DNA of 61,161 bases from positions 1 through 61,161 of the forward strand of contig NJBH01000023.1 of assembly GCA_005223125.1 (NCBI GenBank), read 5' to 3'. This DNA comes from Promethearchaeota archaeon Loki_b32. Lineage in GTDB: Archaea > Asgardarchaeota > Lokiarchaeia > Sigyniarchaeales > SOKP01. Position 1 is the stretch's first letter, and each line of letters starts with the position of its first letter. A program made the position numbers and the translations under genes. Positions 31,263-46,563 of the stretch are shown piece after piece. The notes beneath the pieces are model-generated. The model was not told the origin of the DNA. It saw only the letters and a program-made list of their open reading frames with translations, and searched no databases.

Positions 31263-32060
31263 TTGAAAACCTACAAAACACGTTTTTTAGAAAAGGAATC
31301 TGATGTTACAATCATTTCTGACTCTAAAAAAGCTATTTTGAGGGCAAAAGAGAGTTTCTTTTATCACCGTAAAATTTTAGAAGAATATATCTCAAAGGAT
31401 AAACATTTTCTGAGTTCTTTTTCTCCGATTAAGGTAAAAACGAACTTAAAAATTATTAAAATTATGGCGAATGTGGCAGAAATTTGTAATGTCGGACCAA
31501 TGGCTTCTGTAGCTGGAGCATTAGCTGATTTAATGCTTGGAAAAATGATGGTCCAATATGATAATCAAAATTCAGAAACCATGCCTTGTAATATCGCTCT
31601 AGTTGAAAATGGAGGTGAGATAGCAATTGACTCCAAAGAATCAATAAAAGTTGCGTTGTATGCTGGTAAAAATGAGCTAAATTTAAATTTAGGCTTTCTC
31701 ATAAAAAATAAAGATTGTCCCATAGGAATAGGTACTAGTTCTGCAACTATTGGGCACGCGATTAGTTTAGGACAAGCTGACGCAGTTACGGTTTTTGCCA
31801 AAAAAGCAGCTTTAGCAGATGCAGCTGCTACAAGAATTTGTAATTTAGTTAAAGGTACTGATATAGAAAGTTCGATAAAAAGAGGGTTAGATATTGCTGA
31901 TGACTTAGATGGTATAAGTGGAGTCTTAATTTCCCGTAAAGATAAAATAGGCCAAATTGGAAAACTACCTCAATTAATAAAGATAGAGGGTTCTAAAAAT
32001 CGCATCTTAGAAAAAAAAATTGAAGAGATCTTTATTGATAATTCTGAAATATTTAAATAA
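31263..32060 (+). CDS. UPF0280 / ApbE-like family protein
   Basis: GPMASVAGA, VENGGEIA, GTSSAT.GHAISLG.ADAVTV...ALADAAAT. Confidence 0.9.
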   Translation: MKTYKTRFLEKESDVTIISDSKKAILRAKESFFYHRKILEEYISKDKHFLSSFSPIKVKTNLKIIKIMANVAEICNVGPMASVAGALADLMLGKMMVQYDNQNSETMPCNIALVENGGEIAIDSKESIKVALYAGKNELNLNLGFLIKNKDCPIGIGTSSATIGHAISLGQADAVTVFAKKAALADAAATRICNLVKGTDIESSIKRGLDIADDLDGISGVLISRKDKIGQIGKLPQLIKIEGSKNRILEKKIEEIFIDNSEIFK

Positions 32061-34332
32061 TCCAGAATAAAGGTGTTTCTTTTCCACTCTCTGTTCTTGC
32101 AGAATAGATTTTATTTAGATAACCAAGTCTATAGTATTGTTCTGATTCCTCTTTTGTTAACTGACCAAATAATTCAAATCCTTTATTTATAATATACTCA
32201 CCTGCAAAAATCAAAAACACATCTGTATTGTATTCCTCTTTAATTTCTTTTAAAATATTAATCCCACTATCATTAACATGATTGCTTGGAGGAAATAAAT
32301 CTATATTATATTTTAAAAAATAAAAGTTTTCATCATAAAGAAGTACTTCCGTTTTTTTATCAAAAGGGTAACCATAATACTTAAATGCATGGCTCCAGCC
32401 AAATTCAGTAATAATAACATTTTTATTTGAAGTATTATTTGAATACCATTGAATTGGGCGGATATCTCTCTCTTTTATAAGGAAAACATCAAAAGCATTT
32501 GATTCATAAAAGTATGTGGTAAATAGTGAAAATATTATAATAAATAAAACTACAAATTTCTTTTGGAATATCGAATGTGATTTTATAAGTTTATAAATAT
32601 ATGATATAAAACCAATTACGACAATAGGAGGGAGTAAATAGAGTATTCTCTGCCAAATCATATTAGTTAATATTAATAAATTAAATGCAATCCCAATTAT
32701 CAAAAATAACAATAATCCTATCCCCCAAATTAATAACGACTTTCCTCTTTGCTTCTTTTGAAATACAATTAATCCCCAGATTGCGAAACTACTTATCATA
32801 ACTATTTCAATCACATAGAAAATATTTATTAGTTCTATACTCATCCATACAAAGTCTACTACTAATAAAACAATAAGGACAATAATTAAAATGCTCGAAA
32901 TAAACGGAATTATTATCTTATCTTCTACACTTTTATAACGAACGTTTGTTTCTCCTCTAATTGTAGCATTAAACTTTCCATTTGTAAAACTGATTGATTC
33001 TCGTATCTTCCAAATAAAAATAAACAATACTAAACCTCCACCCATAACTCCCAAAATAAGAAGATACCAGGGTATATTCAGTGGTATAAAAAACCAGTAA
33101 TGTCCTTCTCCAATACCGAAAGTAGAAAAAATAATAAATAACCCCAATAATCCACATAAGAGGATAAAATCAAATCCTCTTCTAAAATCTCTTATGAAAT
33201 AAATCAAATATAACCAGAGAAAAGATAATAAGAAAAATAATGTAGTAATGTCATGAGTAAGAACTGAACTGATGAAAACTAATATAATTAAAATATAATC
33301 AAAAAAAATATTTGAAACAAGTGCTTTTTTAGTAGGACGTTCTAATTTGGAAAAATTCTGTAATCTTACATAAAGGAGGAAGAATATCATTAAACACTTT
33401 ATTAAAGCTGAACCAGAGGGCCAATACTGAATCATCATCGCGGAAAAGCCTAGAGAAGAGAATTCTAAAAGAAAAACTCCAAATATTGCTAAGTTTTGAT
33501 TTTTAAAAATTCTCATACAAATGTTATAAAAAATTAACCCTGATACAAAGAATGTATAAAAAGTAAAATATTTCGGGATAAGTGTGTGATTTATGCCAGA
33601 AAAGAAATTAATTACCGCACCAAATATGTTTAATCCCATAGTTCTGTGATAACCTTCTAAAGGTAATATATTGATATCAGTAATAATTCTACTATTAAGT
33701 ATGTGAAGCCAAGGATCAGTTCCAACAAAATAATTAACTTTAACGATGTTTAAAATACAAATAAGGAATAAAAAAATAACTAACAAAAGTACATTAAAAG
33801 AAATTAAATTTTTGAGGTAATTCCATAAAGAATAAATATTATAGTTTTCTTTCCTTAGAATTGAAATATCTTTGGATCTAAAAAAAACAAATGAATTTTT
33901 CTTGAATTCCAAAATTATTATAAAGCCTATTATTAAAAAGAATAATATTACTACTGAAAAAAAGAAAAAGAACCTTGTTATTGGGATATTTACCAAATAT
34001 CCAAGATATCCCATAAGTATGTAAAAAACTGAATTCATAACGATTGTTAAACTTAATTTCTCTAAAAAATTAAAAGATTTACCCTTGAATATAATGAAAA
34101 AAATGGGATAAGTAGGTAAAAATAAAATAGTGAAGATTGTACTTATAATGACTAATGTATGAAATAGGGAGTCTAAAAACAGAATTTCTGTAATACCTAA
34201 TATTAAATTTAAATTAATGATTTTGAATAGAATAAATATCAGAGACAATATAGAAACTAAAAAGACAAATAAATGAATTCTTGAGTTTAGAATAAACAGA
34301 ATTCTTTTGAATTTATTTCCAGAGATTTCCAT
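32053..34332 (-). CDS. Polytopic membrane protein, probable GT-C fold glycosyltransferase
   Basis: Many TM helices; GTDPWLH luminal-loop motif; soluble C-terminal domain; glycan-island context. Confidence 0.6.
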   Translation of the reverse strand: MEISGNKFKRILFILNSRIHLFVFLVSILSLIFILFKIINLNLILGITEILFLDSLFHTLVIISTIFTILFLPTYPIFFIIFKGKSFNFLEKLSLTIVMNSVFYILMGYLGYLVNIPITRFFFFFSVVILFFLIIGFIIILEFKKNSFVFFRSKDISILRKENYNIYSLWNYLKNLISFNVLLLVIFLFLICILNIVKVNYFVGTDPWLHILNSRIITDINILPLEGYHRTMGLNIFGAVINFFSGINHTLIPKYFTFYTFFVSGLIFYNICMRIFKNQNLAIFGVFLLEFSSLGFSAMMIQYWPSGSALIKCLMIFFLLYVRLQNFSKLERPTKKALVSNIFFDYILIILVFISSVLTHDITTLFFLLSFLWLYLIYFIRDFRRGFDFILLCGLLGLFIIFSTFGIGEGHYWFFIPLNIPWYLLILGVMGGGLVLFIFIWKIRESISFTNGKFNATIRGETNVRYKSVEDKIIIPFISSILIIVLIVLLVVDFVWMSIELINIFYVIEIVMISSFAIWGLIVFQKKQRGKSLLIWGIGLLLFLIIGIAFNLLILTNMIWQRILYLLPPIVVIGFISYIYKLIKSHSIFQKKFVVLFIIIFSLFTTYFYESNAFDVFLIKERDIRPIQWYSNNTSNKNVIITEFGWSHAFKYYGYPFDKKTEVLLYDENFYFLKYNIDLFPPSNHVNDSGINILKEIKEEYNTDVFLIFAGEYIINKGFELFGQLTKEESEQYYRLGYLNKIYSARTESGKETPLFWII

Positions 34333-34344
34333 AATAGCTTTTTT

Positions 34345-35316
34345 CTATTTTATCTTTAAATCAAACTTATATTTCTTGCAAAACCATTGAAAATAATCTC
34401 TTAGTCCCTGTTCTTGAGTGTATTTTGGCTGAAATTTTAAAATTTCTATTGCCTTTGAAATGTCAGCAAAACTGTGTATGATATCTCCAGGTCTAGGAGG
34501 ATCATAGATGATTCCTAATTCCTCCTTATTTGTGAGTTTTAACATAAGTTTCGCAAGATCTAACAATTTTATTGGAGAACCCGCACCAATATTAAAAATT
34601 TCTCCTGATAGTTTATTTTCAGCAGCTAAGATATTAGCTTGAATAACATCTTTTATGTATGTAAAGTCTCTTGACTGGTTACCATCACCAAATATTATCA
34701 AACTTTCATTTTTTATTATTTGACCCAACCAGATTGCAATTACTCCACTATATGGAGAATCCTGTTGTTTTGGCCCAAAAACGTTAAAATAACGTAATGA
34801 AATTGTATTTAATCCATAAACATGATGAAAAACCTGCATATATGATTCGCATGTTAGTTTAGATACACCATATGGAGAAATTGGTATTCTTGACATTTCC
34901 TCTTTTTTAGGTAGTGTTGGAGTATCTCCGTATACTGCTGAACTCGAAGCAAATATAATTTTTTCAACATCCCTTTTTCTTGAAGCATTTAATAAATTTA
35001 AAGTACCATTAATATTAACATCATTACATGATTCTGGCATTTTTATTGACTGAGGTACACTTGTAAACGCTGCTTCATGATAAATTATATCTATATCTTT
35101 AAATATATCCAATAAAAAATTAAAATCTCTTATATCTCCTTTATGGAATTGAAAATTTTTATGATTTAAAGCCTCATCTAAGTTCTCTAACCGTCCATTA
35201 AAGAAATTGTCAATACCAACTATATTTGCGCCCAATTCGAGTAAATAATGTGTTAAATTACTCCCTATAAATCCAGCAGCTCCAGTAACTAAGATTCTTT
35301 TATCTTTAATTTTCAA
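34345..35316 (-). CDS. NAD-dependent nucleotide-sugar epimerase/dehydratase (WbpP/GalE-like)
   Basis: TGAAGFIG, SSSAVYG, YGVSK, RYFNVFGP, RDFTY. Confidence 0.93.
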   Translation of the reverse strand: MKIKDKRILVTGAAGFIGSNLTHYLLELGANIVGIDNFFNGRLENLDEALNHKNFQFHKGDIRDFNFLLDIFKDIDIIYHEAAFTSVPQSIKMPESCNDVNINGTLNLLNASRKRDVEKIIFASSSAVYGDTPTLPKKEEMSRIPISPYGVSKLTCESYMQVFHHVYGLNTISLRYFNVFGPKQQDSPYSGVIAIWLGQIIKNESLIIFGDGNQSRDFTYIKDVIQANILAAENKLSGEIFNIGAGSPIKLLDLAKLMLKLTNKEELGIIYDPPRPGDIIHSFADISKAIEILKFQPKYTQEQGLRDYFQWFCKKYKFDLKIK

Positions 35317-35419: not shown

Positions 35420-36556
35420 TTAACTTAAATCTAAAAGATATTTCATAAATTCTTCCTTATATTCTTTCGGAAGTTTGTTTGGTCTTTTTAAATTTAAGGC
35501 GGAATGAAGTTTTGTTTTTATTAAAATTAGTATCGGGCCATCCCGATTTTTAATATTATCAAGAGAATCTAACAATTGTTCTTTTGTCTCAATTTTAATA
35601 CTCCATCTGTAATTCGATGCAATTGCCAAGTCTTCAAATTTAATGATTGAAGAATTCGTTGGTTGACTTCCAGTAGATTCATGTGCTTCATTATCTATAA
35701 TTATATGAACAAAATTTGTAGGAGAATATTTTCCTATCGTTGAAAATGCACCCATCTGCATAATAGCTGCACCATCTCCATCGAATACAATGATTCTTTT
35801 TTGTGGTTTTTGAAGTGCTATACCTAATCCAATAGAACTAGCGCACCCCATAGAGCCAATATTATAAAAACTTTTATAGTGATCTTTTTCATTTGATTCT
35901 CTATATTCAAATAATAATCTCGAAATATAACCAGTATTGGAAATAATGATTTCATCTTTAGATAAACTGTTTAAAATTAAGTGAATTACTTCTTTTGTAG
36001 TTAAACTATATTTATTCGATATTACTCTCTTCATTTCATAATTTTGAAAGAAGTTTCTTCGAAATATTAAAGCAAAGGGGCCCTTTTTCTTGTCAAAATA
36101 TTGTAAGGCTTTATTAAATTCTTTTTCAATCTTTTGGGCATTTGGCTCTAATATGGCATAAGGAATTTGGAGAGTTTCTAATAATGGCAATGTAATTTTA
36201 CCCATTTTTTTATGTTGTGGAGCATCTTTTTTATTAGGTTCACCTCGCCAGCCAATCATTAAAAGAATAGGAATTGAATATATCTCAGGGTCGCATAACG
36301 ATGTAAGTGGATTAATAGTTTTTCCAAATCCAGAATTTTGCATGTAAACAACTCCTATTTTATTGGTTGCTAAATAATATCCTGCTGCTATAGCAATTGC
36401 TTCGCATTCATTACACGCAATTATATTTTCAAAGTTTTCACCCTGATTATCGGTTAGAAATTTCATCAAATCCTTAAATGTCGAGTCTGGAATTCCAGTA
36501 AAAAAGGTTAAATTATGCTCATTTAAGATATTGAAAAACTGTTCGCAAGAAATCAT
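35420..36556 (-). CDS. aepY: Phosphonopyruvate decarboxylase
   Basis: FTG.PDS..K, NE..A...AAG, YMQNSG.G...NPL.SL, GWRGEP...D.PQH, GSMG..SS..LG, DGDGA..M, N..HES.G.QP. Confidence 0.93.
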   Translation of the reverse strand: MISCEQFFNILNEHNLTFFTGIPDSTFKDLMKFLTDNQGENFENIIACNECEAIAIAAGYYLATNKIGVVYMQNSGFGKTINPLTSLCDPEIYSIPILLMIGWRGEPNKKDAPQHKKMGKITLPLLETLQIPYAILEPNAQKIEKEFNKALQYFDKKKGPFALIFRRNFFQNYEMKRVISNKYSLTTKEVIHLILNSLSKDEIIISNTGYISRLLFEYRESNEKDHYKSFYNIGSMGCASSIGLGIALQKPQKRIIVFDGDGAAIMQMGAFSTIGKYSPTNFVHIIIDNEAHESTGSQPTNSSIIKFEDLAIASNYRWSIKIETKEQLLDSLDNIKNRDGPILILIKTKLHSALNLKRPNKLPKEYKEEFMKYLLDLS

Positions 36557-36562
36557 TTTTAT

Positions 36563-37297
36563 CTATGAAATTTTATAATTTTGTTTATTTTTATTTAGGT
36601 AATTCTTTACTCCTTCTAAATCTTCATGATCATCAATTTCAACACAAAATTCATCATAATAACAAGGTTTTAAAATAAGAAGATCTAAAATTTCATTTAA
36701 AGCATCTTCAGCATAACAATTTACTTTACTGTTGTTTATAAAATCTTCAATTTCTTGTAGCCATCTTAACATAAATTCTTTAGACAATTTATATAATGGT
36801 GCTAAGAAGGCAGTATTATTCCCTTTTAAATTAACTCCAATTTTATAAACTCTGTTGTTCATTATTATTGACTTAAAATCTTTTTCTGGAGGTGGGATGT
36901 CTCTATTAACTAAAACACAATCCTTGTTATTAGATTCAATTAATAATTTTACTAAATTTTCAGAAAAGATTAAATCTCCATGAGAATACAAGACATCATC
37001 ATTTATAATGTCCTTAGCTAAATATAAAGAATAAATGTAATTTGTTTTATTATAAAGTGGATTATTCACATATTGAACTTTAATTGAAGGATAATGTTGT
37101 TTAATATGCTTTTTAATTCTATTTTCAAATGGACCTGTAGTAATGATAAAATCTTTAAAACCTAATTTTAATATATTCTTTAATTGATGATCCAAGATTG
37201 TCTCATTATTCCTTATTTTAACAAGACATTTTGGCGTATTATTAGTCAAAGGAGCTAATCTCTTACCAATCCCAGAATTTAACAATATAATTTTCAT
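36563..37297 (-). CDS. LicC/PntC-like phosphonate or phosphocholine cytidylyltransferase
   Basis: SGIGKRL..LT...PKCL, NP.Y..TNYIYSL, HGDL, EIDD.EDL; inside the phosphonate operon. Confidence 0.85.
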   Translation of the reverse strand: MKIILLNSGIGKRLAPLTNNTPKCLVKIRNNETILDHQLKNILKLGFKDFIITTGPFENRIKKHIKQHYPSIKVQYVNNPLYNKTNYIYSLYLAKDIINDDVLYSHGDLIFSENLVKLLIESNNKDCVLVNRDIPPPEKDFKSIIMNNRVYKIGVNLKGNNTAFLAPLYKLSKEFMLRWLQEIEDFINNSKVNCYAEDALNEILDLLILKPCYYDEFCVEIDDHEDLEGVKNYLNKNKQNYKIS

Positions 37298-38430
37298 TTA
37301 ATATCCTTTAAGATACTTCTTAATTGGGTTTCTGTTAATAATCTTGGATTATTTTTAACTCTTTCAGGGTTAAATCCATTTTTAATTATAATTTCTCTAT
37401 CCTCTTGATTTTTTATGCCTAATTTTCCAAGGTTTGTTTCTAATCCAACATCATCAATTAATTTTCTAACTTTATCTTTTGCCTCCATAAAATTAGAAAC
37501 TCCTAAGAGTGATATCAGCTCTTTCATAGTTTTTTTAACATAATCAACTCCACGAGGATCTTTAATATCTTCATTACTAACTCTTGAATTAAAAATAATC
37601 ATAGAGGGTAAAGTTAAAGCTACAGCATGTCCATGTGGTACTTTAAAATAAGAGGTAATTGGATATGAAATAGCGTGACAGGCTGTAGTTTTTGTTATAT
37701 TTATTGCCTTACCAGACAAATTTGCAGCAATTGCCATGTTGTATCTAGAATCTCTACTAGGATTTTGAAATGCAGTCAAAATATTACTCATTATCAATGC
37801 TATTGCCTTTTTAGAATAATTTTTTGATTCACTTGTAGAATTAATATTCCAATAGGATTCAATAGCTTGTGTAAATGCATCTAAACCTGAAGTTGCTGTT
37901 AGATTCTTGGGTAAACTTTCAGTAAATTGAGGGTCGACTATAACATATTCAGGCTGCATGTAATCAGAATCTCCTAACGAATATTTATTTTTATCTATAT
38001 AAACAACAGCAAAATGAGTTGCTTCACTTCCGGAACCCGCCGTTGTGGGAATTCGAATTAAAGGAACCCCCTTCTTTTTTATCCTTTTTTGTTTAAGAAC
38101 ATATTCTTCAGGAGAACCATTATTAGTTGATAAAATCGAGATGCATTTACCCATATCTAAAACTGATCCTCCTCCAACAGAAAGAATCACATCAAATTCT
38201 TGCTCTTTAAATAAATCTAATCCTCTTTTTATATCATTAATTTTAGGATTTGGAGAAAAATCATTAAATTGAAAAAAATCATGATCCTTAAGAATTTCGA
38301 GAATAACTTTTTTTATGATAGTTTTTTCAAAAGAGTCCTTTCCAGTTATTAAGAAAATTTTATTGAATGAGGATTCTTCAAGTATTTTCCTTAATTTATT
38401 TATAGAATTAAATCCTAAGTATTCAATCAT
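37294..38430 (-). CDS. Iron-containing alcohol dehydrogenase; probable phosphonoacetaldehyde reductase (PhpC/FomC-like)
   Basis: GGGSVLD, PTTAGSGSEAT, DA..QAIES, TTACHA.SY, PHGHA, NNPR; located between PEP mutase and Ppd. Confidence 0.85.
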   Translation of the reverse strand: MIEYLGFNSINKLRKILEESSFNKIFLITGKDSFEKTIIKKVILEILKDHDFFQFNDFSPNPKINDIKRGLDLFKEQEFDVILSVGGGSVLDMGKCISILSTNNGSPEEYVLKQKRIKKKGVPLIRIPTTAGSGSEATHFAVVYIDKNKYSLGDSDYMQPEYVIVDPQFTESLPKNLTATSGLDAFTQAIESYWNINSTSESKNYSKKAIALIMSNILTAFQNPSRDSRYNMAIAANLSGKAINITKTTACHAISYPITSYFKVPHGHAVALTLPSMIIFNSRVSNEDIKDPRGVDYVKKTMKELISLLGVSNFMEAKDKVRKLIDDVGLETNLGKLGIKNQEDREIIIKNGFNPERVKNNPRLLTETQLRSILKDIK

Positions 38431-38482
38431 ATTCTAGGTTAATTTAATTGGAATTATAAAGATATAATTTAATTAGTTTTAA

Positions 38483-40192
38483 TTATATTAATTTTTCAGC
38501 AACATCAACGTCTTTTCTAGTATGAATCTCAAACCATCCTTTATGAACTTCCAATATATCCACTCTGAACCCTCTATCTATCACTTCTTGTATAAGATCT
38601 ATAAAAGATGCTTTATTAAATGAATCGGCCTCATGAAAATTCCCTTTATGGTTCAAATTGCACTCATTATATATCCTTCTAATGATCTCAACCCCATATT
38701 CTGAGAAGTATGCGATTCCAGTAAATTCATAATCTGCCATGTCCATATTAATTGTTCTTCCAATTCTTATAATTTCATTTTCCACTTGGTATAAATCCCT
38801 TGTTTGTTCGCTTGGTTTATTTTTTGTTAAAATAAGTTCAAGATTTTTATCAATCTTATGTTTATGATATGTATAAGAATTATCTAAAACCAAAATAATA
38901 TCTCCTTTTGATATAAGCAGATTTTTTATTATTTTTTCATTGAACAGAATATCGGAATAAATAAATATGAATCCACCCTCCATTTCCTCTTCGGCTTTAA
39001 AGAGAGAATGTAAAATGTAATATTTATCATATTCTTCATTATTAATGTATTTTACCCCATCGACATTAAATTCTTCTTTTTTAAATCCTCTAATAACAAT
39101 TATTTCACTGATACCACAATTTTTTAACGTTTCTATTTGCCTTTGGAGAACAGGTTTACCCTTTAAGATAGTCATTGCTTTTGGAATTTCAAATTCTGGA
39201 TCTGCACCAGCAGCAGGAATTATAACTTTTATAGTGCCTTTAATATATTTCATATCTTTTTCTTTGACATCCAAAAACCCCACATCTTTAAAAACCGTTT
39301 TCACAGGGCTACACATAGCTTCTGCTTCAAAAGCTCTTTTATTTCTTAAAATGATCGAAGCTGTTTCCTTCATTGCCTTATGAGCCGCTCGTAACAGGTG
39401 ATTAGCATAAATTACAATGTTAAAACCATGATCTTTTAATTCATCCTCAGTAATTGTATTATAAGTAGTGGGAACGCATACTAATGGCTTTCTATCCCCT
39501 AACTCCTTTGATAGCTTTTCATATTCATTAGCAAAATCGAATATCTCTTTTGGATTGATATTTTTAGAATGAATCATAATTCCATCTGCACCTGCTAATA
39601 GATACTTTTTTGCTCTATAAATAGCATCTTTTAATCCTGCACCTGAAATTAAACTTTCAATCCGAGCTATAAGCATAAAATCGTTTGAGATTTGGACTTC
39701 CTTACCCCTTTTGATTTTCGTAGCAAAAACATCTGGATCTTCCTGATCTTGAATTGTACCACTTTCTAGACTATTTCTCTTTGGAAATTTTTTATCCTCA
39801 ATAATAACCATTGAAACGCCCATATCTTCTAAGGATCTTATAAAATATTCGAATTTCGCAGCTTCACCACCAGTATCACCGTCAATAATAATAGGCTTAT
39901 TTGAACTGTTTAAAACTTGTCTGATTGTTTCATATCGAGATTCAACTCCGATAATTTCAATATCAGGATATCCTTTTGAAGCGCTATCTGTGAAACTACT
40001 AAACCAGAAACCATCAAATTCGAGAATTTCGTCTCTAACGTTCTCCTTAATATTATTAGCAATAATAGCGCTAAGTCCATTGTGAGTTTCTAGAATTCTT
40101 ACAAAACCCTTGTTAATAAGCAATTTTTTCAAAATACTCCTTCTATCATTAGGTAAGATTCTCCCTTTTAATTTTAATTCCATCCTTATCAC
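38483..40192 (-). CDS. aepX: Phosphoenolpyruvate mutase fused to a C-terminal nucleotidyltransferase
   Basis: PEP-mutase signature EDKKFPKRNS (EDK-X5-NS), DGDTG, ARIES, VPTTY, YANH; C-terminal IPAAG...YSDILF...W.EI. Confidence 0.95.
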   Translation of the reverse strand: MIRMELKLKGRILPNDRRSILKKLLINKGFVRILETHNGLSAIIANNIKENVRDEILEFDGFWFSSFTDSASKGYPDIEIIGVESRYETIRQVLNSSNKPIIIDGDTGGEAAKFEYFIRSLEDMGVSMVIIEDKKFPKRNSLESGTIQDQEDPDVFATKIKRGKEVQISNDFMLIARIESLISGAGLKDAIYRAKKYLLAGADGIMIHSKNINPKEIFDFANEYEKLSKELGDRKPLVCVPTTYNTITEDELKDHGFNIVIYANHLLRAAHKAMKETASIILRNKRAFEAEAMCSPVKTVFKDVGFLDVKEKDMKYIKGTIKVIIPAAGADPEFEIPKAMTILKGKPVLQRQIETLKNCGISEIIVIRGFKKEEFNVDGVKYINNEEYDKYYILHSLFKAEEEMEGGFIFIYSDILFNEKIIKNLLISKGDIILVLDNSYTYHKHKIDKNLELILTKNKPSEQTRDLYQVENEIIRIGRTINMDMADYEFTGIAYFSEYGVEIIRRIYNECNLNHKGNFHEADSFNKASFIDLIQEVIDRGFRVDILEVHKGWFEIHTRKDVDVAEKLI

Positions 40193-40373
40193 TTTAATTT
40201 ATTTTAATTACTAGATTTAATGTGAAATACTGATACAAGTTTATTTTTGAATAATCTCGAACTCATAATTAATAAAGTCTTCATAAATTAAATACTTAAA
40301 TGTAACAAGTTTAATTAGCTTTTCCTATTCAAAAAATAGCTAATACTAAAAATAAAAAAAATAGAATTGAATT

Positions 40374-41687
40374 TTAAATATATTCTTTTCTCTCTGGCAT
40401 ACTTTTCCAATCTAATAATAGGACTAATCCCCCTATTAATGCAACTATAATCCAGAGTAAAAAAGCAGCTTCGGAACCCGCAGTATCAATAAGAGCTCCT
40501 GATGTAAAAGATGTAATTGCAGCGCCAATATATCCCCATCCATCAATAAACCCAGTAGCAGCAGAAGCAGCTTTTCTTGTGCCAAACTCCATTGGTATAG
40601 TAGCAACTAGAAGAGCATGAGGTCCAAAATTTAAAAATCCAATTAAAAGTAATACTGGAATTCCAAAAACAATATCAAGTGGGGGCAACAATGTATAAAT
40701 AACCAATGTTAATGATAGCGCAAAAAATAGGGCACAAATCACAGGCATTCTTCTTTTTCCGGCAAATTTATCAGAAATCCAAGCACCAACAATAACTCCA
40801 ATTGTACCACCTATTGGATAGAAAATAGATTTCCATATTGGAAAAAATCCTGCACCTGTAATTTCAGGACTTAAGAGATATGGTAACCAATCTGTTAATC
40901 CGTATCTTACCATATTCAAACAAAATAACCCAAAAGAAGCAAAAAGAACAGTTTTTGTCTTAATGATTGTACCAATTGTGTATTTAAAGCCCACAAAATC
41001 ATCTTCACGACACTCACCCATTACAATTTTCCCATCGCATTCCTCTTCCAATGTTGGTAAGCCAACTTCTTCAGGAGCATTTCTACCTCGTAAATAAAAA
41101 TGTATCGCCATGAAAAGCATTATAATTCCAGGGAAGATGAAAGAAAATCTCCAATTTAAGCTGAGTGTGTCAGTGATTAAAATTGCTATAAACCATGATA
41201 CTACACCTCCAAGTAAATATGAAGTAGCGAGTCTACTGGACCATTTTCCTCTCTCGTCTGGAGGATGCCAATTGGCTATGGTTTTAACTGAAGGTGCCCA
41301 TCCCATTGATTGAAAATATCCATTTAAACCCCATAACAGAAATATAAGCCAAAGAAAATCAAAGGCTACTCCCATAAATAAATTTATGACTGAAGAAACA
41401 ATCAAACCAATGGTTATAAACCGTCTTGCCCCTATCTTATCCCCTAAAAAACCATTAACAAATTGCCCAAAAGCATAAGCCAAGAAAAAGGTAGTTCCAA
41501 CAAATCCCATTACTGTTGCTGAAATCCCATATTCAGGCATAAGATGGGGTTTTGCAATGGAGAGATTAGTACGTCCGATATAATATATCATATAAGTAAT
41601 CCAAACTGTAAAAAATATCCGCATCCTCCATTGTTTAAATTTTTCTTTTACTTCAGTTTCACTAGCAGTGTTTTCAATTTCGCTCAT
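40374..41687 (-). CDS. OPA-family MFS organophosphate:Pi antiporter (GlpT/UhpC-like)
   Basis: YYIGR.N.S.A, GYFQSMGW.P.......W....ERG, GRNAPEEVGL, ATGFIDG.GYIG. Confidence 0.88.
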   Translation of the reverse strand: MSEIENTASETEVKEKFKQWRMRIFFTVWITYMIYYIGRTNLSIAKPHLMPEYGISATVMGFVGTTFFLAYAFGQFVNGFLGDKIGARRFITIGLIVSSVINLFMGVAFDFLWLIFLLWGLNGYFQSMGWAPSVKTIANWHPPDERGKWSSRLATSYLLGGVVSWFIAILITDTLSLNWRFSFIFPGIIMLFMAIHFYLRGRNAPEEVGLPTLEEECDGKIVMGECREDDFVGFKYTIGTIIKTKTVLFASFGLFCLNMVRYGLTDWLPYLLSPEITGAGFFPIWKSIFYPIGGTIGVIVGAWISDKFAGKRRMPVICALFFALSLTLVIYTLLPPLDIVFGIPVLLLIGFLNFGPHALLVATIPMEFGTRKAASAATGFIDGWGYIGAAITSFTSGALIDTAGSEAAFLLWIIVALIGGLVLLLDWKSMPERKEYI

Positions 41688-41702
41688 TTTTTTTTCCTAA
41701 TT

Positions 41703-42467
41703 TTATATTTTTCCTTTTTTAATTAATTGTTTAGCATATTCATAATCTTCATCTGTATCCAACTCAACCCAATTTCCTTGAATATCTACAGAATAAATAG
41801 GATATCCTCTATTAATAAGTTCTTCAAACATATCTGTTAAGTATGCTTTATCGAAAGTTGTGGCGTCATGAAAACGTCCATCATACTTACACGTTTTATT
41901 ATACTTTGCACGGTTATAATTACGTGTAAGGATTTCTGCTCCTTTTTTAGAAATCTTGCCTAAACCTATGAATTCTCCATAGGCAACATCAGGATTAAAA
42001 AATTTTGAAAGACGAGTTACTTTTCCATCAACAACGCAAGCTAACTCTGCTTCGTCTGTGGGATGTTTTGTTCGATTTTCATATCTTATTCTCCAATCTC
42101 TATCAATTATAAGATTAAAATCATGTGGAGCATCTAAGAGTTTTTGAACAACTTTTTTATTATAAAGGATATCTGAGTATGTAAATATAAACTCTTCGTC
42201 CAATTCTGGTTCCGCGTAAAAAAGAGATTCAAGAATATTATTGTTATAATAATTATCATTGTCATAATACTTGATATTTGGTAGATTAATTGTTTCTTTC
42301 TGATATCCACGAATAATGACAATATCATTAATACCACAACTATAAAAAACCTCTAGAATCCTATCAAGAATTGTTATTCCTTCAATTTCTAATAAGCATT
42401 TGGGTTTATATTCTGTAAAGGGTCGTAATCTAGTACTTGGTCCTGCTGCGATGATTATAGCTTTCAT
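41703..42467 (-). CDS. LicC/PntC-like cytidylyltransferase
   Basis: KAIIIAAG..TRL.P.T...PKCL, GYQ, NNIL.SL, YSDI, W.ELDT.EDY. Confidence 0.88.
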   Translation of the reverse strand: MKAIIIAAGPSTRLRPFTEYKPKCLLEIEGITILDRILEVFYSCGINDIVIIRGYQKETINLPNIKYYDNDNYYNNNILESLFYAEPELDEEFIFTYSDILYNKKVVQKLLDAPHDFNLIIDRDWRIRYENRTKHPTDEAELACVVDGKVTRLSKFFNPDVAYGEFIGLGKISKKGAEILTRNYNRAKYNKTCKYDGRFHDATTFDKAYLTDMFEELINRGYPIYSVDIQGNWVELDTDEDYEYAKQLIKKGKI

Positions 42468-42629
42468 TTGCTAAAACTTCCATGTTTAATTTATGTTTTA
42501 ACTCTATTTACAATAAATAGTTTTATATAAAAATTGTAGATTTTATTAATTTCTTTCGGAAATATATAGAGTTCACATATTACAAAAATGTTAAAATAAT
42601 TAATCGAAATATAATAGGAAATTTAAATT

Positions 42630-44135
42630 CTAATTGTAATATTTTCTTAAATGCTTATTAAAATAAAGAGGAAAATATAAAATCCAAACTAAAATTTCTT
42701 TCCATCTTTGAAAGAGTTGATTTCTTCTAACAATAATTGATTTTATAACAAATCTTAAGTATCCTGTTTTATTCCACTGATCTGATACATCAGATAATTC
42801 AGTATCTAGAATTAAGTAATTTTTTGAAATGTTCTTATATTTCTTTATTAATTTTTTTAACCCATAACCAGTTAATCTGTTGAAAAAAAGAATAGTTGTA
42901 ACATCTTGTATTTGAGAGGTATTTCTATTGATTATATCATGTTGATTGATTACAACATTTTTTGCTTTTAGTGTTTCTCGTAAATATTTTACTAGAGTAG
43001 GGGGAAATTGGTCAGGCATTAAAATAGTTTTAGATTTTAGTTTAGGCAATATACTATGATTATATAATGAATCCAAAGTTGATTTGAAATTATCATAAGC
43101 TTTTGATTCTGTATCTAAATAAAAATTATATAATTCATTGTAAATTTCAGGAAATTTTTCCTTAATATCTTTTTCTTCCAGCTTGTCATTAGCAAGGTTA
43201 AATAATGAAAACTTTCCATTATCATTGAGTAATTTCCAATCACCTTTGGTTATCATAGTCTTCTTTATTGATTGAAACATTAAATAACAATCACCTCTTA
43301 CCTTTCTTTCACTATTAACATCGATATCATTCTCTATCAATGGTTTGAATGAAATGGAATGTCTATCATGTTCAGTTTCAATATTTAAGTAATTTAAAAT
43401 AGTTTCCAGTATATCTATTAGATATACTCTCTTATATATTGTTCTAAATGTTGCAGTTGTTAAAATTGATGGAATTCTTATGAATAAAGCTGGTTGCATT
43501 GAAGATTGATGTATATCATCAAAATGTAATAGTTTTGTTTTTTTGTATAGAATTTTGTCATAATATCCATGATCAGAATTAAGAATAAATATAGAATTGT
43601 TCCAAAAATTATTCTTCTTTAAAAATTGAATAATCTTTCTAATATATCGGTCAACTTGAGGGTCACTAGGTCTAAAGAATATGAAATATAGATTTTTTTC
43701 CTTTGATTTTATATGCTCAACTTTTTCCATAAACAGATCATAAATTTCTTTCGCATCTAACCAATGGTCTCCTTGATACATCTCTTCGATATAATAAGGA
43801 TTGAGAATATCCTTTAGAACAATTACCTGCTCTCTACCAAATATAATGGATTCAATATTATATCCTTCTTGTTTTAAAGGATAAATACTATTATTTAATT
43901 CTAAACTTGGAAGGTTCTCTATTGATCGATAATAATCAGGGAATATATAATAGGGAAATCTACCAGTTAAAAATGAAAGAAGAGATAAATTTGTTGAAGG
44001 AAATTGAGAAACACAGTCTTCAAAATATAATCCTTCTTTATTCTTTTTTAGTTTTTTATATATTGGAAGCAACCCATGCAGATCAGATCTTTCATAATTA
44101 CAGATTGAATCAGTGACTATCCAAAAAATATTCAT
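42630..44135 (-). CDS. Alkaline-phosphatase/sulfatase superfamily protein (possible phospho(no)-transferase or hydrolase)
   Basis: NIFWIVTDS, PST..S..S.LTG..P, NSDHG, LFNL..D..E. Confidence 0.75.
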   Translation of the reverse strand: MNIFWIVTDSICNYERSDLHGLLPIYKKLKKNKEGLYFEDCVSQFPSTNLSLLSFLTGRFPYYIFPDYYRSIENLPSLELNNSIYPLKQEGYNIESIIFGREQVIVLKDILNPYYIEEMYQGDHWLDAKEIYDLFMEKVEHIKSKEKNLYFIFFRPSDPQVDRYIRKIIQFLKKNNFWNNSIFILNSDHGYYDKILYKKTKLLHFDDIHQSSMQPALFIRIPSILTTATFRTIYKRVYLIDILETILNYLNIETEHDRHSISFKPLIENDIDVNSERKVRGDCYLMFQSIKKTMITKGDWKLLNDNGKFSLFNLANDKLEEKDIKEKFPEIYNELYNFYLDTESKAYDNFKSTLDSLYNHSILPKLKSKTILMPDQFPPTLVKYLRETLKAKNVVINQHDIINRNTSQIQDVTTILFFNRLTGYGLKKLIKKYKNISKNYLILDTELSDVSDQWNKTGYLRFVIKSIIVRRNQLFQRWKEILVWILYFPLYFNKHLRKYYN

Positions 44136-44278
44136 TGGGGTACCTTTTTTAATATCTATTTTAATGTTTTTAATTATTTGAGTATAAATGCATTTAATGA
44201 TTAATTAAATGATAAAAATTTATTGCATCATGCTTAACTCTTAAAATTATTATTCTAACTTAATTACTCACTATTCTA

Positions 44279-45388: not shown

Positions 45389-45417
45389 CTTTATTTTAAC
45401 ATTTCTTTGATTTGTAA

Positions 45418-46293
45418 TTAATCATATATATTCGCAGATTGAAAAATCTTGATAATATCCTTTTCAAACGTTTTAAATTTAATAATTATAAATGATGTAA
45501 ATACAATAAACATAAAAATAGTATAAACTATCATAATAAGTTCTAATATCTGTAAATAACCAAAATTCATATATAATATGAAGCCAATGAAAAATACCGT
45601 TATAATGATATAAGGATGACTAAAAGCATTAACAAGATTAATAATTAAACCTTTTATAGATTTAATAAATCCTTTTTTTGACGATTGTAATTCGTTACTT
45701 TCTACTTTTTGATTAATAATATTTCTGATTTCACTCTTTGTAGACGCTATAATGGCTATCTTACGGATTACTCTTACTCCTAATAAAAGGTAAGACGCTA
45801 CTGCTCCTAAAATTATGTATAGAAATTCTGTATTAATATTATAAATACTATAACCAATGGCAAAGAAAAACCATCCCAGAAAGATTAAATGTCCTATCTC
45901 ATCGTAATAAATTCCTCGCAATGAAATTTGTTTTTTATACCTTGCAATCTCCCCGTCTACTTCATCAGAAAGATAATATAGATATAATAATATAAAACCA
46001 AGGATAATGAAAAAGTTACTACCTAACCCAATCAATAATAATCCTATTAAACCAATTACAATTCCGAAAACTGTAACAAAATTTGCAGTAATTGGGGTTT
46101 TTACTAATATCCAGGTGATAAAAGGAGAGATAAAGTGAGCAGGAGAGTGCCACCAAGCCTTTTTTCTTTTTGTTCTTTCTAATTTTTTTCCTTGAGCGAT
46201 CCTTTTGAATTCTTTAAATTTCATCTTACATTTTAAAAACATTTTAATTTGTAATATCCTTACAAATTTTTTGAAAAATAAATTATTTATCAA
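45418..46293 (-). CDS. CDP-alcohol phosphatidyltransferase family protein
   Basis: TANFVT, D..DGEIAR...S..G...D...H. Confidence 0.88.
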   Translation of the reverse strand: MINNLFFKKFVRILQIKMFLKCKMKFKEFKRIAQGKKLERTKRKKAWWHSPAHFISPFITWILVKTPITANFVTVFGIVIGLIGLLLIGLGSNFFIILGFILLYLYYLSDEVDGEIARYKKQISLRGIYYDEIGHLIFLGWFFFAIGYSIYNINTEFLYIILGAVASYLLLGVRVIRKIAIIASTKSEIRNIINQKVESNELQSSKKGFIKSIKGLIINLVNAFSHPYIIITVFFIGFILYMNFGYLQILELIMIVYTIFMFIVFTSFIIIKFKTFEKDIIKIFQSANIYD

Positions 46294-46563
46294 AATCTTC
46301 GAATCATAAATATAATTCGAAACTCATAATTTTTTATTAAAATGAATAAAAGAGGTCATAGATTTTTTACTTTTAATATGAAACCCCGAAACATTGAGAA
46401 ATAGCTACCTAAAGATAATACAGAGTACAAAAATTTAGCTACTAATACATTTTACTCCATTTTAAAGAAATTCTGCGAGCAATGATAAACTTTTTTAGGT
46501 AGTTTAAATTACCAACTACAATCATTATGTAAAATATTTTAATTCTTTATATATAGGTCAAAA

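Follow-up and report, generated by a model that had tools for sequence, protein, structure and literature searches.

A probable 2-hydroxyethylphosphonate tailoring cassette in a Lokiarchaeial cell-envelope glycan locus

Gene content of the locus

The window, i.e., the whole stretch of 61,161 nucleotides that was analyzed, carries four intact, co-oriented genes on its minus strand between positions 35,420 and 40,192. In transcriptional order these encode a fusion of PEP mutase with a nucleotidyltransferase domain (PepM-NT), an Fe-ADH, the cytidylyltransferase-like NT244, and phosphonopyruvate decarboxylase (Ppd), and all four genes of the initial annotation are real. The core is tightly packed, with one 4-nt overlap (NT244 with the Fe-ADH stop) and spacers of 6 and 52 nt. 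The features discussed below are as follows.

32053..34332, minus: memb759, polytopic membrane protein with ~14 hydrophobic segments, probably a GT-C-fold glycosyltransferase
34345..35316, minus: NAD-dependent sugar epimerase/dehydratase, TviC/GalE-like (PF01370, E 4e-65; NF011728, 237.8 bits, under cut-off)
35420..36556, minus: Ppd, phosphonopyruvate decarboxylase, a TPP enzyme (TIGR03297, 421.6 bits vs. cut-off 312.5)
36563..37297, minus: NT244, stand-alone LicC/PntC-type nucleotidyltransferase, probable cytidylyltransferase for 2-hydroxyethylphosphonate (HEP) (PF00483, PF12804)
37294..38430, minus: Fe-ADH, Fe-dependent alcohol dehydrogenase, probable phosphonoacetaldehyde reductase yielding HEP (PF00465, PF25137)
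38483..40192, minus: PepM-NT, PEP mutase (amino acids ~1-310) with a C-terminal LicC-like PF12804 domain (~320-569) whose nucleotide-binding loop is degenerate (TIGR02320, PF13714, PF12804)
40374..41687, minus: MFS437, MFS transporter of the organophosphate:phosphate-antiporter type, GlpT/UhpC/PgtP-like (PF07690; TIGR00881, 239.5 bits, under cut-off)
41703..42467, minus: NT254, second LicC/PntC-like cytidylyltransferase, paired with the transporter (LicC 1jyk, E 3.5e-12; PntC 6pd1, E 1.5e-7)
42630..44135, minus: Sulf501, formylglycine-less sulfatase-fold (alkaline-phosphatase-superfamily) protein, candidate phosphonyl transferase (partial PF00884 match)
45418..46293, minus: CDPOH291, membrane protein of the CDP-alcohol phosphotransferase family, alternative transferase candidate for a lipid or alcohol acceptor (PF01066, 26.5 bits vs. 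cut-off 22)
46564-47232, divergent from CDPOH291: IPCT-like cytidylyltransferase
50529-51182: second PF01066 membrane protein of the CDP-alcohol phosphotransferase family

The host genome is of the Lokiarchaeia type: Promethearchaeota, Lokiarchaeota or Hermodarchaeota are the labels that close homologs carry, and the genes near the cassette include those for Ras, Arf and Roc GTPases and for an E1-like ThiF protein, bearing out the "probable Asgard" origin first proposed. The surface-glycan setting was likewise borne out, in that a flippase, GT4 and GT2 enzymes, epimerases and a GT-C-like protein surround the cassette; one epimerase gene lies downstream of ppd in the same orientation. The GT-C-like protein, memb759, gave no match in a Pfam search and its model is poor (pLDDT 53); every long VIA alignment was to a GT-C enzyme (STT3, Z 12.2; AglB, Z 11.7; ArnT; PglB), and it probably adopts this fold. 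It is found in 48/54 genomes of the genus, with or without pepM.

Predicted route to CMP-HEP

The PepM portion passes the NCBIfam equivalog cut-off for PEP mutase (TIGR02320, 341.4 bits vs. 319.55), matches PF13714 with an E value of 1.6e-49, and has the PEP mutases 5unc and 1m1b as its top PDB matches. The EDK-X5-NS motif noted in the initial annotation is readable as I-I-E-D-K-K-F-P-K-R-N-S (EDKKFPKRNS). Because homologs are 566 amino acids long, the ATG at 40183 is probably the true start. Phosphonopyruvate hydrolase was rejected (152 bits vs. a model cut-off of 374), as was an isocitrate-lyase-type identity, for which the models score far lower. By family assignment, PepM would convert PEP to phosphonopyruvate, and Ppd would decarboxylate this to phosphonoacetaldehyde, thereby pulling the unfavourable equilibrium; sulfopyruvate decarboxylase models gave Ppd only 130 and 90 bits, both under their cut-offs.

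The Fe-ADH has TIGR03405 (Phn_Fe-ADH) as its top NCBIfam match, at 192 bits and under the cut-off of 423.7, and its top PDB matches are generic ADHs. In the Fe-ADH tree it falls in a clade (SH-aLRT 100) of 33 pepM-linked ADHs from many phyla, one from a Stackebrandtia among them, whereas the genome's own three Fe-ADH paralogs fall outside; the gene is also syntenic with Ppd in 17/20 Asgard loci. Phylogeny, synteny and sequence thus point to reduction of phosphonoacetaldehyde to HEP, and support the earlier proposal that Ppm, Ppd and Fe-ADH together yield that compound. HEP is the best-supported of the predicted products.

The domain fused to PepM matches PF12804 (E 3.3e-8, amino acids 324-426), but its loop reads AAGADPEF-EIPK versus AAGLGTRL...TPK in LicC, i.e., it is without the Arg and five residues are missing. 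The conserved Arg of the GXG(T/S)RX4-8PK signature is missing across the whole clade of the fused domain; substitution of Ala for that Arg (R15A) dropped the activity of Tde-PntC to <10% (PMC6697681). The fused domain is not a canonical PntC, and is probably a non-canonical or non-catalytic partner. NT244, whose top PDB match is LicC (1jyk, E 6e-12) and which also matches PntC (6pd1), has the canonical GXGxR...PK signature in its alignment (SGIGKRLAPLTNNTPK; loop SGIGKRL...TPK), and NT254, a paralog of the fused domain at 30-35% identity, has the signature AGPSTRLRPFTEYKPK (loop AGPSTRL...KPK). Since the fused domain is without the signature Arg and both stand-alone proteins have it, NT244 is the likely CMP-HEP synthase, predicted to use HEP and CTP. 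It adjoins pepM in 19/20 Asgard loci irrespective of the fusion type, and for Fom1 it is established that a Ppm-associated cytidylyltransferase forms CMP-HEP (PMC6697681). The "nucleotidyltransferase" label that the initial annotation gave to the fused domain needs correction accordingly.

MFS437 adjoins pepM clusters in three lineages, namely the genus of the window (g1), Ca. Lokiarchaeum ossiferum (57% identity) and Nanoarchaeia (42%), and was kept in three of the four cassette-deleted loci examined. NT254 is restricted to Sulf501-positive genomes (18/18). The transporter possibly imports phosphonate or organophosphate, and together the two proteins may act as a salvage feeder, drawing on extracellular material to supply this or a related CMP-linked head group.

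Proposed destination of the phosphonyl group

We consider it probable that the genes constitute a Pnt-type, HEP-branch phosphonyl-tailoring cassette that is inserted into a Lokiarchaeial cell-envelope glycan locus. The phosphonyl group of CMP-HEP would be moved to a sugar residue in a lipid-linked glycan on the cytoplasmic side; a Wzx-like flippase would then turn the glycan over, and a GT-C enzyme would use it outside the membrane. No LicD or TagF-type transferase was found in the genome, and Sulf501 is the strongest candidate for this step; it would employ a Ser/Thr-Asp-His metal site instead of formylglycine. Its family comprises 58 clusters, all Lokiarchaeia-type or from marine sediment, in which D9, S47, D188-H189 and H204 are invariant, T48 is near-invariant, and the CxPxR motif is missing. 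The AF2 model (pLDDT 87) resembles S1 sulfatases at a TM of ~0.55, and the nearest folds are hydrolases; a search for TM segments found none, and the protein is predicted to be cytoplasmic. Sulf501 is present in 17/17 pepM-positive genomes of the genus, and 32/54 genomes have neither, most of these still retaining memb759. Sister genera without Sulf501 carry, beside pepM, a TagF-type CDP-glycerol glycerophosphotransferase, a type of enzyme that uses CMP-linked donors. Five pepM-less genomes retain an intact Sulf501, which is therefore not solely dependent on the cassette; what it does in the glycan locus may be unconnected with phosphonate. Of the earlier suggestion that CMP-HEP serves surface decoration, the glycan context has held; the transferase is the candidate Sulf501, and decoration itself is still what we infer.

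CMP-HEP, as an analogue of CDP-ethanolamine or CDP-glycerol, might instead be used by CDPOH291 or the 50529-51182 protein, which would give a phosphono head group attached to an archaeal lipid, or to an inositol or glycerol acceptor, rather than a decorated glycan. Two PF01066 proteins do lie in the locus, CDPOH291 being weakly similar to archaetidylinositol-phosphate synthase; CDP-OH-like proteins occur near the cassette in two DPANN loci (L074 and L081), and in Burkholderiales, CDP-OH transferases beside pepM define a group predicted to make phosphonolipids (PMC8942020). However, some pepM-less loci retain CDPOH291, and it did not appear in the portions retrieved from three pepM-positive loci (L042-L044), so that its link to pepM is weaker; its divergent pairing with its own IPCT-like cytidylyltransferase also points to a CDP-alcohol module in its own right. 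In archaea, moreover, lipid head groups are normally added to CDP-archaeol and not from CDP-alcohol donors, and we regard this route as unlikely.

Release of HEP or a derivative as a small-molecule antimetabolite, exported by the MFS protein encoded directly upstream, would be in keeping with the many HEP-branch clusters that make antibiotics, e.g., fosfomycin and phosphinothricin (PMC8942020). Nevertheless, no radical SAM, ATP-grasp, NRPS or dioxygenase tailoring gene was found in the cluster, the known members of the organophosphate:Pi antiporter family import, and some pepM-positive genomes lack MFS437 while pepM-less ones have it; the cassette, furthermore, lies inside a glycan locus and is always accompanied by nucleotidyltransferases. 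A free bioactive phosphonate is accordingly quite improbable.

Slightly less probable again is that HEP is only an intermediate, converted by an unlinked or unrecognized enzyme to AEP, methylphosphonate or hydroxymethylphosphonate. Genome completeness is 95.5%, and in Nitrosopumilus maritimus the three opening steps are identical and lead on to MPnS (PMC8942020). The initial annotation had recognized no AEP transaminase and no MpnS/HepD dioxygenase, and the genome agrees: no PhnW scored over the cut-off (the top class-V aminotransferase, encoded beside serA, reached 168 bits vs. 360.8), and the cupin-bearing ORFs included nothing resembling MPnS or HepD, in a search made with the Cupin_2 model only, which a divergent enzyme could escape. 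All 11 Cupin_2 matches were small cupins, a Cupin+CMD protein, a cupin-type phosphoglucose isomerase or a PMI-like protein. MPnS and HEPD need O2, and Lokiarchaeia are strict anaerobes. Nor was any further conserved gene found to travel with the four-gene core across the Asgard loci examined.

The core itself is syntenic in 17/20 Asgard pepM loci, far above chance, and also in DPANN and CPR loci. PepM was found in 42/400 Asgard genomes sampled (~10%), in two unrelated fusion lineages, and in 17/54 genomes of the genus; clean deletions that leave ppd/pepM remnants occur in genomes and in one metagenome contig. The cassette is thus an accessory, optional, strain-variable and repeatedly lost module. 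Such patchiness and repeated deletion might suggest decaying cargo, functionless in the present genome, but this is scarcely credible given ORFs that are intact here and in 16 congeners (55-85% amino-acid identity, catalytic motifs kept) and pepM contigs in a sediment metatranscriptome, where two ~99%-identical contigs hint at transcription, though they come from a single library that may include DNA. With the cassette common to DPANN, CPR and many bacteria, and with fusion of Ppm to a PF12804 domain being the commonest Ppm architecture (33%; PMC6697681), the case is less singular than the initial annotation implied. The chemistry is ordinary and the four-gene set well known; the host is an uncultured Asgard archaeon, with a cultured relative, Ca. 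L. ossiferum, whose own Fom1-type cassette makes the proposal testable.

Comparison with known systems

The bacterial Pnt clusters (Treponema denticola Tde1415, Atopobium rimae Ari1348; Rice et al. 2019, PMC6697681) share with the window the Ppm-PF12804 fusion, an additional LicC-like cytidylyltransferase that is encoded separately within one or two genes, and a cell-wall or glycan neighbourhood with CMP-activation logic. The window differs in its HEP branch (Fe-ADH) as opposed to the AEP branch (transaminase), in having no LicD-type transferase, in a fused domain without the Arg, and in its Asgard host. As far as CMP-HEP, the chemistry is that of Fom1-Fom2-FomC in the Streptomyces wedmorensis fosfomycin cluster (Ppm, Ppd, Fe-ADH and HEP cytidylylation), but the fusion of the window is C-terminal, of PF12804 rather than PF01467, and in another PepM clade; Fom3 and Fom4 are missing, and the setting is a glycan locus and not an antibiotic cluster. 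It is other Asgard families, including Ca. L. ossiferum, that share the exact Fom1 domain order (HxGH CyTase, then PepM), alongside Ppd, ADH and NT244 as in the window.

The methylphosphonate cluster of N. maritimus (Ppm, Ppd, Pdh, MPnS; Metcalf et al. 2012) is alike in its archaeal host and first three steps; the search here found no MPnS, as would fit an anaerobe, and HEP itself is the likely head group. The N. maritimus product is probably esterified to exopolysaccharide, and sulfatase-family and nucleotidyltransferase genes reportedly lie beside that cluster. An HEP-conjugated exopolysaccharide has been isolated from Stackebrandtia, and that of Stackebrandtia nassauensis/Glycomyces is the only HEP-branch cluster family with such an isolated conjugate (PMC8942020). 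A Stackebrandtia pepM-linked ADH is in the same clade as that of the window, whereas the hosts of this family are Actinomycetota, its PepM is unfused, and its accessory transferases are different. The HEP cassettes of DPANN share the PepM, Ppd, Fe-ADH and NT244-like core (NT244 is 49-55% identical to its counterparts in L074, L076 and L094) and lie in a glycosylation island; they are, however, Fom1-type fusions, whereas the PepM of the window sits in a clade with Nitrospinota, Dehalococcoidia and Thermoplasmata and is paired with the Lokiarchaeia-specific Sulf501.

The phosphonate cassette, its host, and its predicted product

The source genome is 4.13 Mb in size and 95.5% complete, and the window is one entire contig of it (C30). 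Four intact genes lying head to tail make up the cassette; in order, they are separated by a gap of 52 nt, a 4-nt overlap, and a gap of 6 nt.

Genes of the predicted 2-hydroxyethylphosphonate (HEP) cassette
38483-40192, minus strand: PepM-NT, PEP mutase with a fused LicC-like PF12804 domain; 569 aa if begun at a GTG; the ATG at 40183 is the likelier start and gives 566 aa, the homolog length
37294-38430, minus strand: Fe-ADH, putative phosphonoacetaldehyde reductase, 378 aa
36563-37297, minus strand: NT244, stand-alone nucleotidyltransferase of the LicC/PntC type, 244 aa
35420-36556, minus strand: Ppd, phosphonopyruvate decarboxylase, 378 aa

PepM scored 341.4 bits with TIGR02320 (PEP mutase, EC 5.4.2.9; cut-off 319.55), and in a profile search of the whole genome with the same model, pepM was found as a single copy (343.4 bits). 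The family test took in the sister families phosphonopyruvate hydrolase (PPH), methylisocitrate lyase, and CPEP mutase; the PPH model gave 152.4 bits (cut-off 374.4) and prpB 104 (cut-off 354). The catalytic motif EDK-X5-NS, which distinguishes Ppm from the rest of the isocitrate-lyase superfamily (PMC6697681), is present as E132-D133-K134-KFPKR-N140-S141 (i.e., E-D-K-K-F-P-K-R-N-S), and its residues, together with D104, D106, K138, R177, and H208, are invariant in seven Asgard PepMs of both fusion types. By family model and motif, PepM is thus a PEP mutase with predicted mutase activity, a name that automatic annotation already gives it. Ppd scored 421.6 bits with TIGR03297 (cut-off 312.5); a role as the sulfopyruvate decarboxylase of coenzyme M synthesis is ruled out by the model scores (ComE-like, 130.2 against 221.5; ComD-like, 89.7 against 147.95) and by the adjoining PepM. 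The initial annotation had named both enzymes correctly, and on model scores PepM groups neither with isocitrate lyase nor with PPH. The core is a standard HEP-branch phosphonyl-tailoring cassette.

That the host is a probable Asgard archaeon, as had also been proposed, is correct. More than 120 clusters of homologs share 53-99% identity and the two-domain build with the PepM of the window, and those with names are listed as phosphoenolpyruvate mutase of a Promethearchaeota, Lokiarchaeota, or Hermodarchaeota archaeon; the window also encodes Ras, Arf, and Roc GTPases, an E1-like ThiF protein, and RACo. No rRNA, tRNA, or Rfam match lies within the window, and the taxonomy is that of the names of protein homologs. 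The same DNA was found in metagenomes of sediment, subsurface, and cold seep (nine studies).

Fe-ADH scored only 192.4 bits with the phosphonate-cluster model TIGR03405 (cut-off 423.7), and the lactaldehyde reductase model came close at 189.3. In a tree of 54 sequences, it nevertheless fell into a clade of 33 ADHs (SH-aLRT 100, branch 0.32), all of which adjoin pepM or ppd, and which spans DPANN, Thermoplasmata, Methanosarcinales, CPR, Bacteroidota, Verrucomicrobiota, and Actinomycetota, including a Stackebrandtia. Three other Fe-ADHs of the same genome (26-30% identity) lie outside this pepM-linked clade, and an Fe-ADH adjoins ppd in 17 of 20 Asgard loci. By tree placement and neighborhood, Fe-ADH is predicted to be of the phosphonate-cluster type despite missing the TIGR03405 cut-off.

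The initial annotation had recognized no AEP transaminase in the window, and the same holds genome-wide for PhnW (TIGR03301 and TIGR02326): the best match reached 167.8 bits against a cut-off of 360.8, adjoins a phosphoglycerate dehydrogenase, and is better fitted by another aminotransferase model. It had likewise seen no MpnS or HepD dioxygenase. This stands insofar as no oxygenase of the MPnS, HEPD, or HppE type was found among the 11 Cupin_2 matches of the genome, a search that was indirect, using the Cupin_2 model only, and that a divergent member could escape. Small cupins (99-128 aa) account for eight of the matches; the longer proteins comprise a Cupin+CMD protein, a weak PMI-like protein, and a cupin-type phosphoglucose isomerase. 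Oxygenases of the MPnS/HEPD type require O2, and Lokiarchaeia are anaerobes. Of the two unassigned ORFs beside the cluster, one belongs to a conserved hypothetical family of archaea (PRK04334) and the other is an orphan. The former, unk265 (31263-32060, plus strand; NF003321/PRK04334), scored 240 bits, just below the cut-off of 262; it is conserved beside the membrane protein gene memb759 throughout the genus, and three short contigs of metatranscriptome X20 map to it. At the far end of the glycan locus, two ORFs of 691 and 647 aa (54358-56433, plus strand; 56753-58696, minus strand) have no Pfam match, and the first coincides with a rise in G+C to 0.355 from a surrounding level of about 0.26.

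The HEP branch accounts for 8.5% of ppm neighborhoods, and S. nassauensis yields a HEP conjugate from its exopolysaccharide, a product having been isolated from just one other HEP-branch producer (PMC8942020). Given this precedent, the pepM-clade Fe-ADH, the lack of an AEP route in the genome, and the lack of any recognized step past HEP, the best-supported product of the cassette is HEP.

Cytidylyl transfer and the proposed destination of the head group

Three LicC-like domains occur in the neighborhood: NT244, the stand-alone NT254 (41703-42467), and the domain fused to PepM. The best PDB matches of all three are LicC (1jyk) and PntC (6pd1). The PntC/LicC signature is GXG(T/S)RX4-8PK with Arg15 and Lys25, and the Tde-PntC variants R15A, K25A, and K153A have <10% activity (Rice et al., PMC6697681).

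Signature region of the three LicC-like domains
NT244: S-G-I-G-K-R-L-APLTNNT-P-K; canonical, with Lys replacing T/S
NT254: A-G-P-S-T-R-L-RPFTEYK-P-K; near-canonical, with Ser for the second Gly and both Arg and Lys kept
PepM-fused domain: A-A-G-A-D-P-E-F-E-I-P-K; without the Arg, the second Gly, and T/S; loop 5 residues shorter

In the fused domain, the spacer is only three residues and PK alone is retained from the signature. The same degenerate loop, IIPAAGxDP...PK, was present in every C-terminally fused PepM aligned (~12 sequences from seven phyla: Asgard, Thermoplasmata, Methanosarcinales, Dehalococcoidia, Nitrospinota, Falkowbacteria, and a deltaproteobacterium), and the stand-alone nucleotidyltransferases adjoining those genes have the canonical signature. 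NT244 follows the cassette in 19 of 20 Asgard loci regardless of fusion type, and its homologs in Woesearchaeota and Nanoarchaeota are 49-50% identical. Because NT244 is canonical and travels with the cassette everywhere, and the fused domain is degenerate, CMP-HEP synthesis is assigned to NT244, with a predicted preference for CTP and phosphonate; the fused domain would be divergent and possibly non-catalytic. The PepM-nucleotidyltransferase fusion of the initial annotation is real as an architecture, which is in fact the commonest for Ppm (33% of Ppm enzymes; PMC6697681), but the assignment to NT244 corrects the emphasis placed there on the fusion.

NT254 comes directly after MFS437 (40374-41687), a GlpT-like transporter of the organophosphate:phosphate antiporter family that scores below the cut-offs of the PgtP, UhpC, and GlpT models. 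The pair also flanks the cassette of Ca. Lokiarchaeum ossiferum (57% and 54% identity), and a MFS437 homolog lies two genes from pepM in a Nanoarchaeon (L081). Both genes were intact in three of the four cassette-deleted genomes examined, which makes salvage a reasonable idea: a phosphonate or phospho-alcohol would be imported and then cytidylylated by the pair. NT254 is 58-59% identical to that of the window in three pepM-less genomes (G195, G202, and G214) and 74-86% in pepM-positive ones, and its open frames are longer (324 aa) in genomes that lost the pepM cassette. The NT254 segment had low depth at ≥90% identity in the DNA run X12.

No LicD, TagF-type transferase, or C-P lyase was found in the genome. 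Within the locus, the candidates for head-group transfer are the sulfatase-fold protein Sulf501 (42630-44135) and two proteins of the CDP-alcohol phosphotransferase family. Sulf501 (501 aa) belongs to a family of 58 clusters confined to Lokiarchaeia-type MAGs and marine sediment, and no relatives beyond Asgard were found by a word-based search. Its AF2 model (pLDDT 87) comprises an S1-sulfatase/alkaline-phosphatase-superfamily domain and an extra C-terminal domain; Foldseek ranked 6ust first (E 9e-16, TM 0.55), ahead of numerous S1 sulfatases. Sulf501 has neither a signal peptide nor a TM segment, and it lacks the C/S-x-P-x-R formylglycine motif, the position reading V-S-Q-F-P-S-T-N. D9, S47, D188-H189, and H204 are invariant in the family and T48 nearly so, the metal pair D188-H189 standing where sulfatases carry Asp-Asn; a Ser/Thr nucleophile combined with Asp-His in this way is typical of phosphotransferases and diesterases of the EptA, LtaS, and NPP types. 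The N. maritimus cluster presumably contains sulfatase genes as well, and a Nanoarchaeota locus (L076) encodes, two genes away from pepM, a sulfatase-family protein of weak similarity (23% identity; PF00884, 87 bits).

Occurrence in 54 genomes of the genus (related genomes, not independent samples)
Sulf501: 22
pepM: 17 (window's own counted), all Sulf501-positive
NT254: 18, all Sulf501-positive
Sulf501, pepM, and NT254 all absent: 32
memb759 family: 48

This nested occupancy indicates an accessory unit, made up of Sulf501 and its two "feeders", within a glycan locus that is itself conserved. We infer that the head group would go to the glycan of that locus, with Sulf501 as the candidate transferase; Sulf501 stays intact in genomes without pepM, and its nearest folds are hydrolases. 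In six Sulf501-less Lokiarchaeial loci of sister genera of f1, the family of the window (L038-L041, L045, and L050; e.g., L040:10636-11856), a TagF-type CDP-glycerol glycerophosphotransferase (PF04464, 266 bits) directly adjoins pepM. TagF-type enzymes as a class take CMP-linked donors, and since HEP retains a free hydroxyl, CMP-HEP could in principle be polymerized by the TagF-like enzyme in the manner of CDP-glycerol. A fuller scheme, which we put forward as a rather unlikely one, would make Sulf501 the founder of a new transferase class, a cytoplasmic sulfatase-fold enzyme lacking formylglycine that moves a phosphonyl (or phospho-alcohol) head group from a CMP-linked donor to a lipid-linked glycan via a Ser/Thr-phosphonyl intermediate; the de novo PepM cassette and MFS437/NT254 salvage would be its interchangeable feeders, a C-P surface would be gained or lost by single deletions, and the TagF-like enzyme of the sister genera would make a teichoic-acid-like poly(hydroxyethylphosphonate).

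The CDP-alcohol phosphotransferase-family protein CDPOH291 has a weaker association with pepM, as it occurs in loci lacking pepM and was not found in the portions of L042-L044 that were covered; it also has its own IPCT-like cytidylyltransferase partner. CDPOH291 and this IspD/IPCT-like CT222 are divergent neighbors (45418-47232), like the halves of a bifunctional IPCT/DIPPS, pointing to a distinct module for CDP-alcohol head groups within this locus.

Downstream of the cassette and in the same orientation lies the polytopic membrane protein gene memb759 (32053-34332), which is not specific to phosphonate strains. Its AF2 model from 11 close orthologs is poor (pLDDT 53). In the VIA comparison, STT3 (Z 12.2 over 305 aa) and AglB (Z 11.7) were matched, Z values below ~13 not being decisive for helical bundles; every long alignment was with an STT3, AglB, ArnT, PglB, ALG, or PMT enzyme (Z 9-12). 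The motif G-T-D206-P-W-L-H is invariant, and the Atlas search returned DUF families alone. Taken as a lead and not as proof, these alignments make memb759 probably a GT-C glycosyltransferase. A second paralog (46% identity) is found at G000:C35:12822-15086 of the same genome, and many congeners have two or three copies.

Variability of the cassette and the origin of PepM

The locus frame in the genus runs Arf/Roc GTPase, unk163, unk265, memb759, epimerase, [cassette], MFS437, NT254, Sulf501, GT4, CDPOH291, and flippase. Four Sulf501-positive, pepM-less genomes retain this frame. G202 has a 3' remnant of ppd (aa 274-377) between the epimerase and MFS genes, and what is left in G216 is aa 345-378 of ppd, aa 1-63 of pepM, and aa 53-101 of NT254; no cassette remnant was found in the G204 and G195 loci. 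In run X12, a 388-nt contig (depth 133, contig depth being no valid measure of abundance or expression) fuses 35627 to 40275, with a microhomology of 9 nt and a shorter side of 146 nt. The joint omits 4647 bp, i.e., pepM, ADH, NT244, and most of ppd, and thus cassette-bearing and cassette-free strains coexist. A second, weaker indel joint (40330 to 42633, run X1) has exactly 30 nt on its shorter side, and joints with fewer (e.g., 40373 to 46260) were excluded; it agrees with congeners L042-L044, which are without MFS437 and NT254. The cassette is an accessory, repeatedly lost module that behaves as a strain-variable island. Two contigs of metatranscriptome X20 on the PepM domain (39277-39649 and 39714-40038, with five and three mismatches) hint that pepM is transcribed, the contigs being from one library that may contain DNA; the missing X20 contigs over other parts of the cluster are uninformative.

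The survey of Asgard genomes for pepM that the initial annotation had proposed gave matches over the TIGR02320 cut-off in 42 of 400 sampled genomes (about 10%). Two PepM architectures occur. Family f1 has the ~566-aa PepM-PF12804 form, and families f3, f13, f15, and f16, together with one f1 genome, have a ~435-aa form with an HxGH cytidylyltransferase N-terminal to PepM, which is the Fom1 build; the HxGH motif reads FIHPGH in those four families, including Ca. L. ossiferum. A tree of 109 PepM domains unites the fused forms of f1 in a monophyletic group (SH-aLRT 99) inside a wider clade (SH-aLRT 100, branch 0.36), whose other members are Nitrospinota; Dehalococcoidia with a Guaymas Thermoplasmata; and Methanosarcinales, Falkowbacteria, and Myxococcota. 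The Fom1-type Asgard PepMs are placed elsewhere, with Woesearchaeota, Nanoarchaeota, and Methanosarcinales. These two placements indicate that at least two PepM lineages entered Asgard genomes independently, i.e., by separate acquisitions.

One Fom1-type carrier is the cultured Ca. Lokiarchaeum ossiferum B-35 (G138), whose PepM (UYP47934.1) is labeled 2-methylisocitrate lyase in GenBank. Its locus (L046; G138:C1:4923200-4943199, at ~4.93 Mb on the chromosome) comprises NT244-like, Fe-ADH, Ppd, and CyTase/PepM genes and, divergently, NT254-like and OPA-type MFS genes. We found no paper tying Lokiarchaeota or L. ossiferum to phosphonates.

Eight Nitrospinota loci (L059-L064, L068, and L069) carry a 570-aa PepM-NT fusion of 48-51% identity, with no Ppd and no Fe-ADH within 10 kb either side; their downstream chemistry must therefore differ, and is possibly a phosphonopyruvate branch. 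Separately, L081 (Candidatus Nanoarchaeia archaeon, JAQTOY010000009.1; 6838-14542) encodes a Fom1-like CyTase-PepM together with Ppd and Fe-ADH; on the flanks are an OPA-type MFS and two radical SAM proteins, one B12-binding and of the Fom3 class (475 aa), the other radical SAM/SPASM (492 aa). It looks like early fosfomycin logic, CMP-HEP methylation leading to hydroxypropylphosphonate, in a DPANN archaeon.

Significance and comparison with known phosphonate systems

Phosphonates at the cell surface withstand phosphatases, and their presumed role is protection from grazers, phages, or enzymes. To our knowledge, the chemistry of Asgard envelopes is almost uncharacterized, and these envelopes matter for models of partner interaction. 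A predicted C-P decoration pathway is fairly common in the Asgard genomes sampled, in two independently acquired forms, and because one version is present in Ca. L. ossiferum, the prediction is testable with existing biomass. The phosphonyl-transfer step gains concrete candidates, the sulfatase-fold protein or the TagF-like enzyme, and a PF12804 domain that throughout its PepM clade is without a residue needed for cytidylyl transfer is useful to phosphonate biochemistry. An overlooked source of HEP esters may lie in anoxic marine sediments and cold seeps.

The HEP-branch cassette type and the Ppm-PF12804 fusion architecture are already known. What is particular here is the Asgard host and the frequency of the cassette in that phylum, the two independent lineages, a presence or absence that leaves deletion scars, a fused domain that has no Arg, a sulfatase-fold partner restricted to Lokiarchaeia, and the cultured carrier. 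Among archaea, a cold-seep BGC survey reports phosphonate clusters in six phyla (PMC11051675), and a Borg preprint describes a PepM-cytidylyltransferase fusion on a Methanoperedens Borg. Fom1 consists of an N-terminal PF01467 (HxGH) cytidylyltransferase followed by PepM, whereas the fusion in the window is C-terminal and of PF12804. A similar strain-variable pattern, in which a phosphonate trait is present at low frequency, is reported for Prochlorococcus and SAR11 (PMC8931226).
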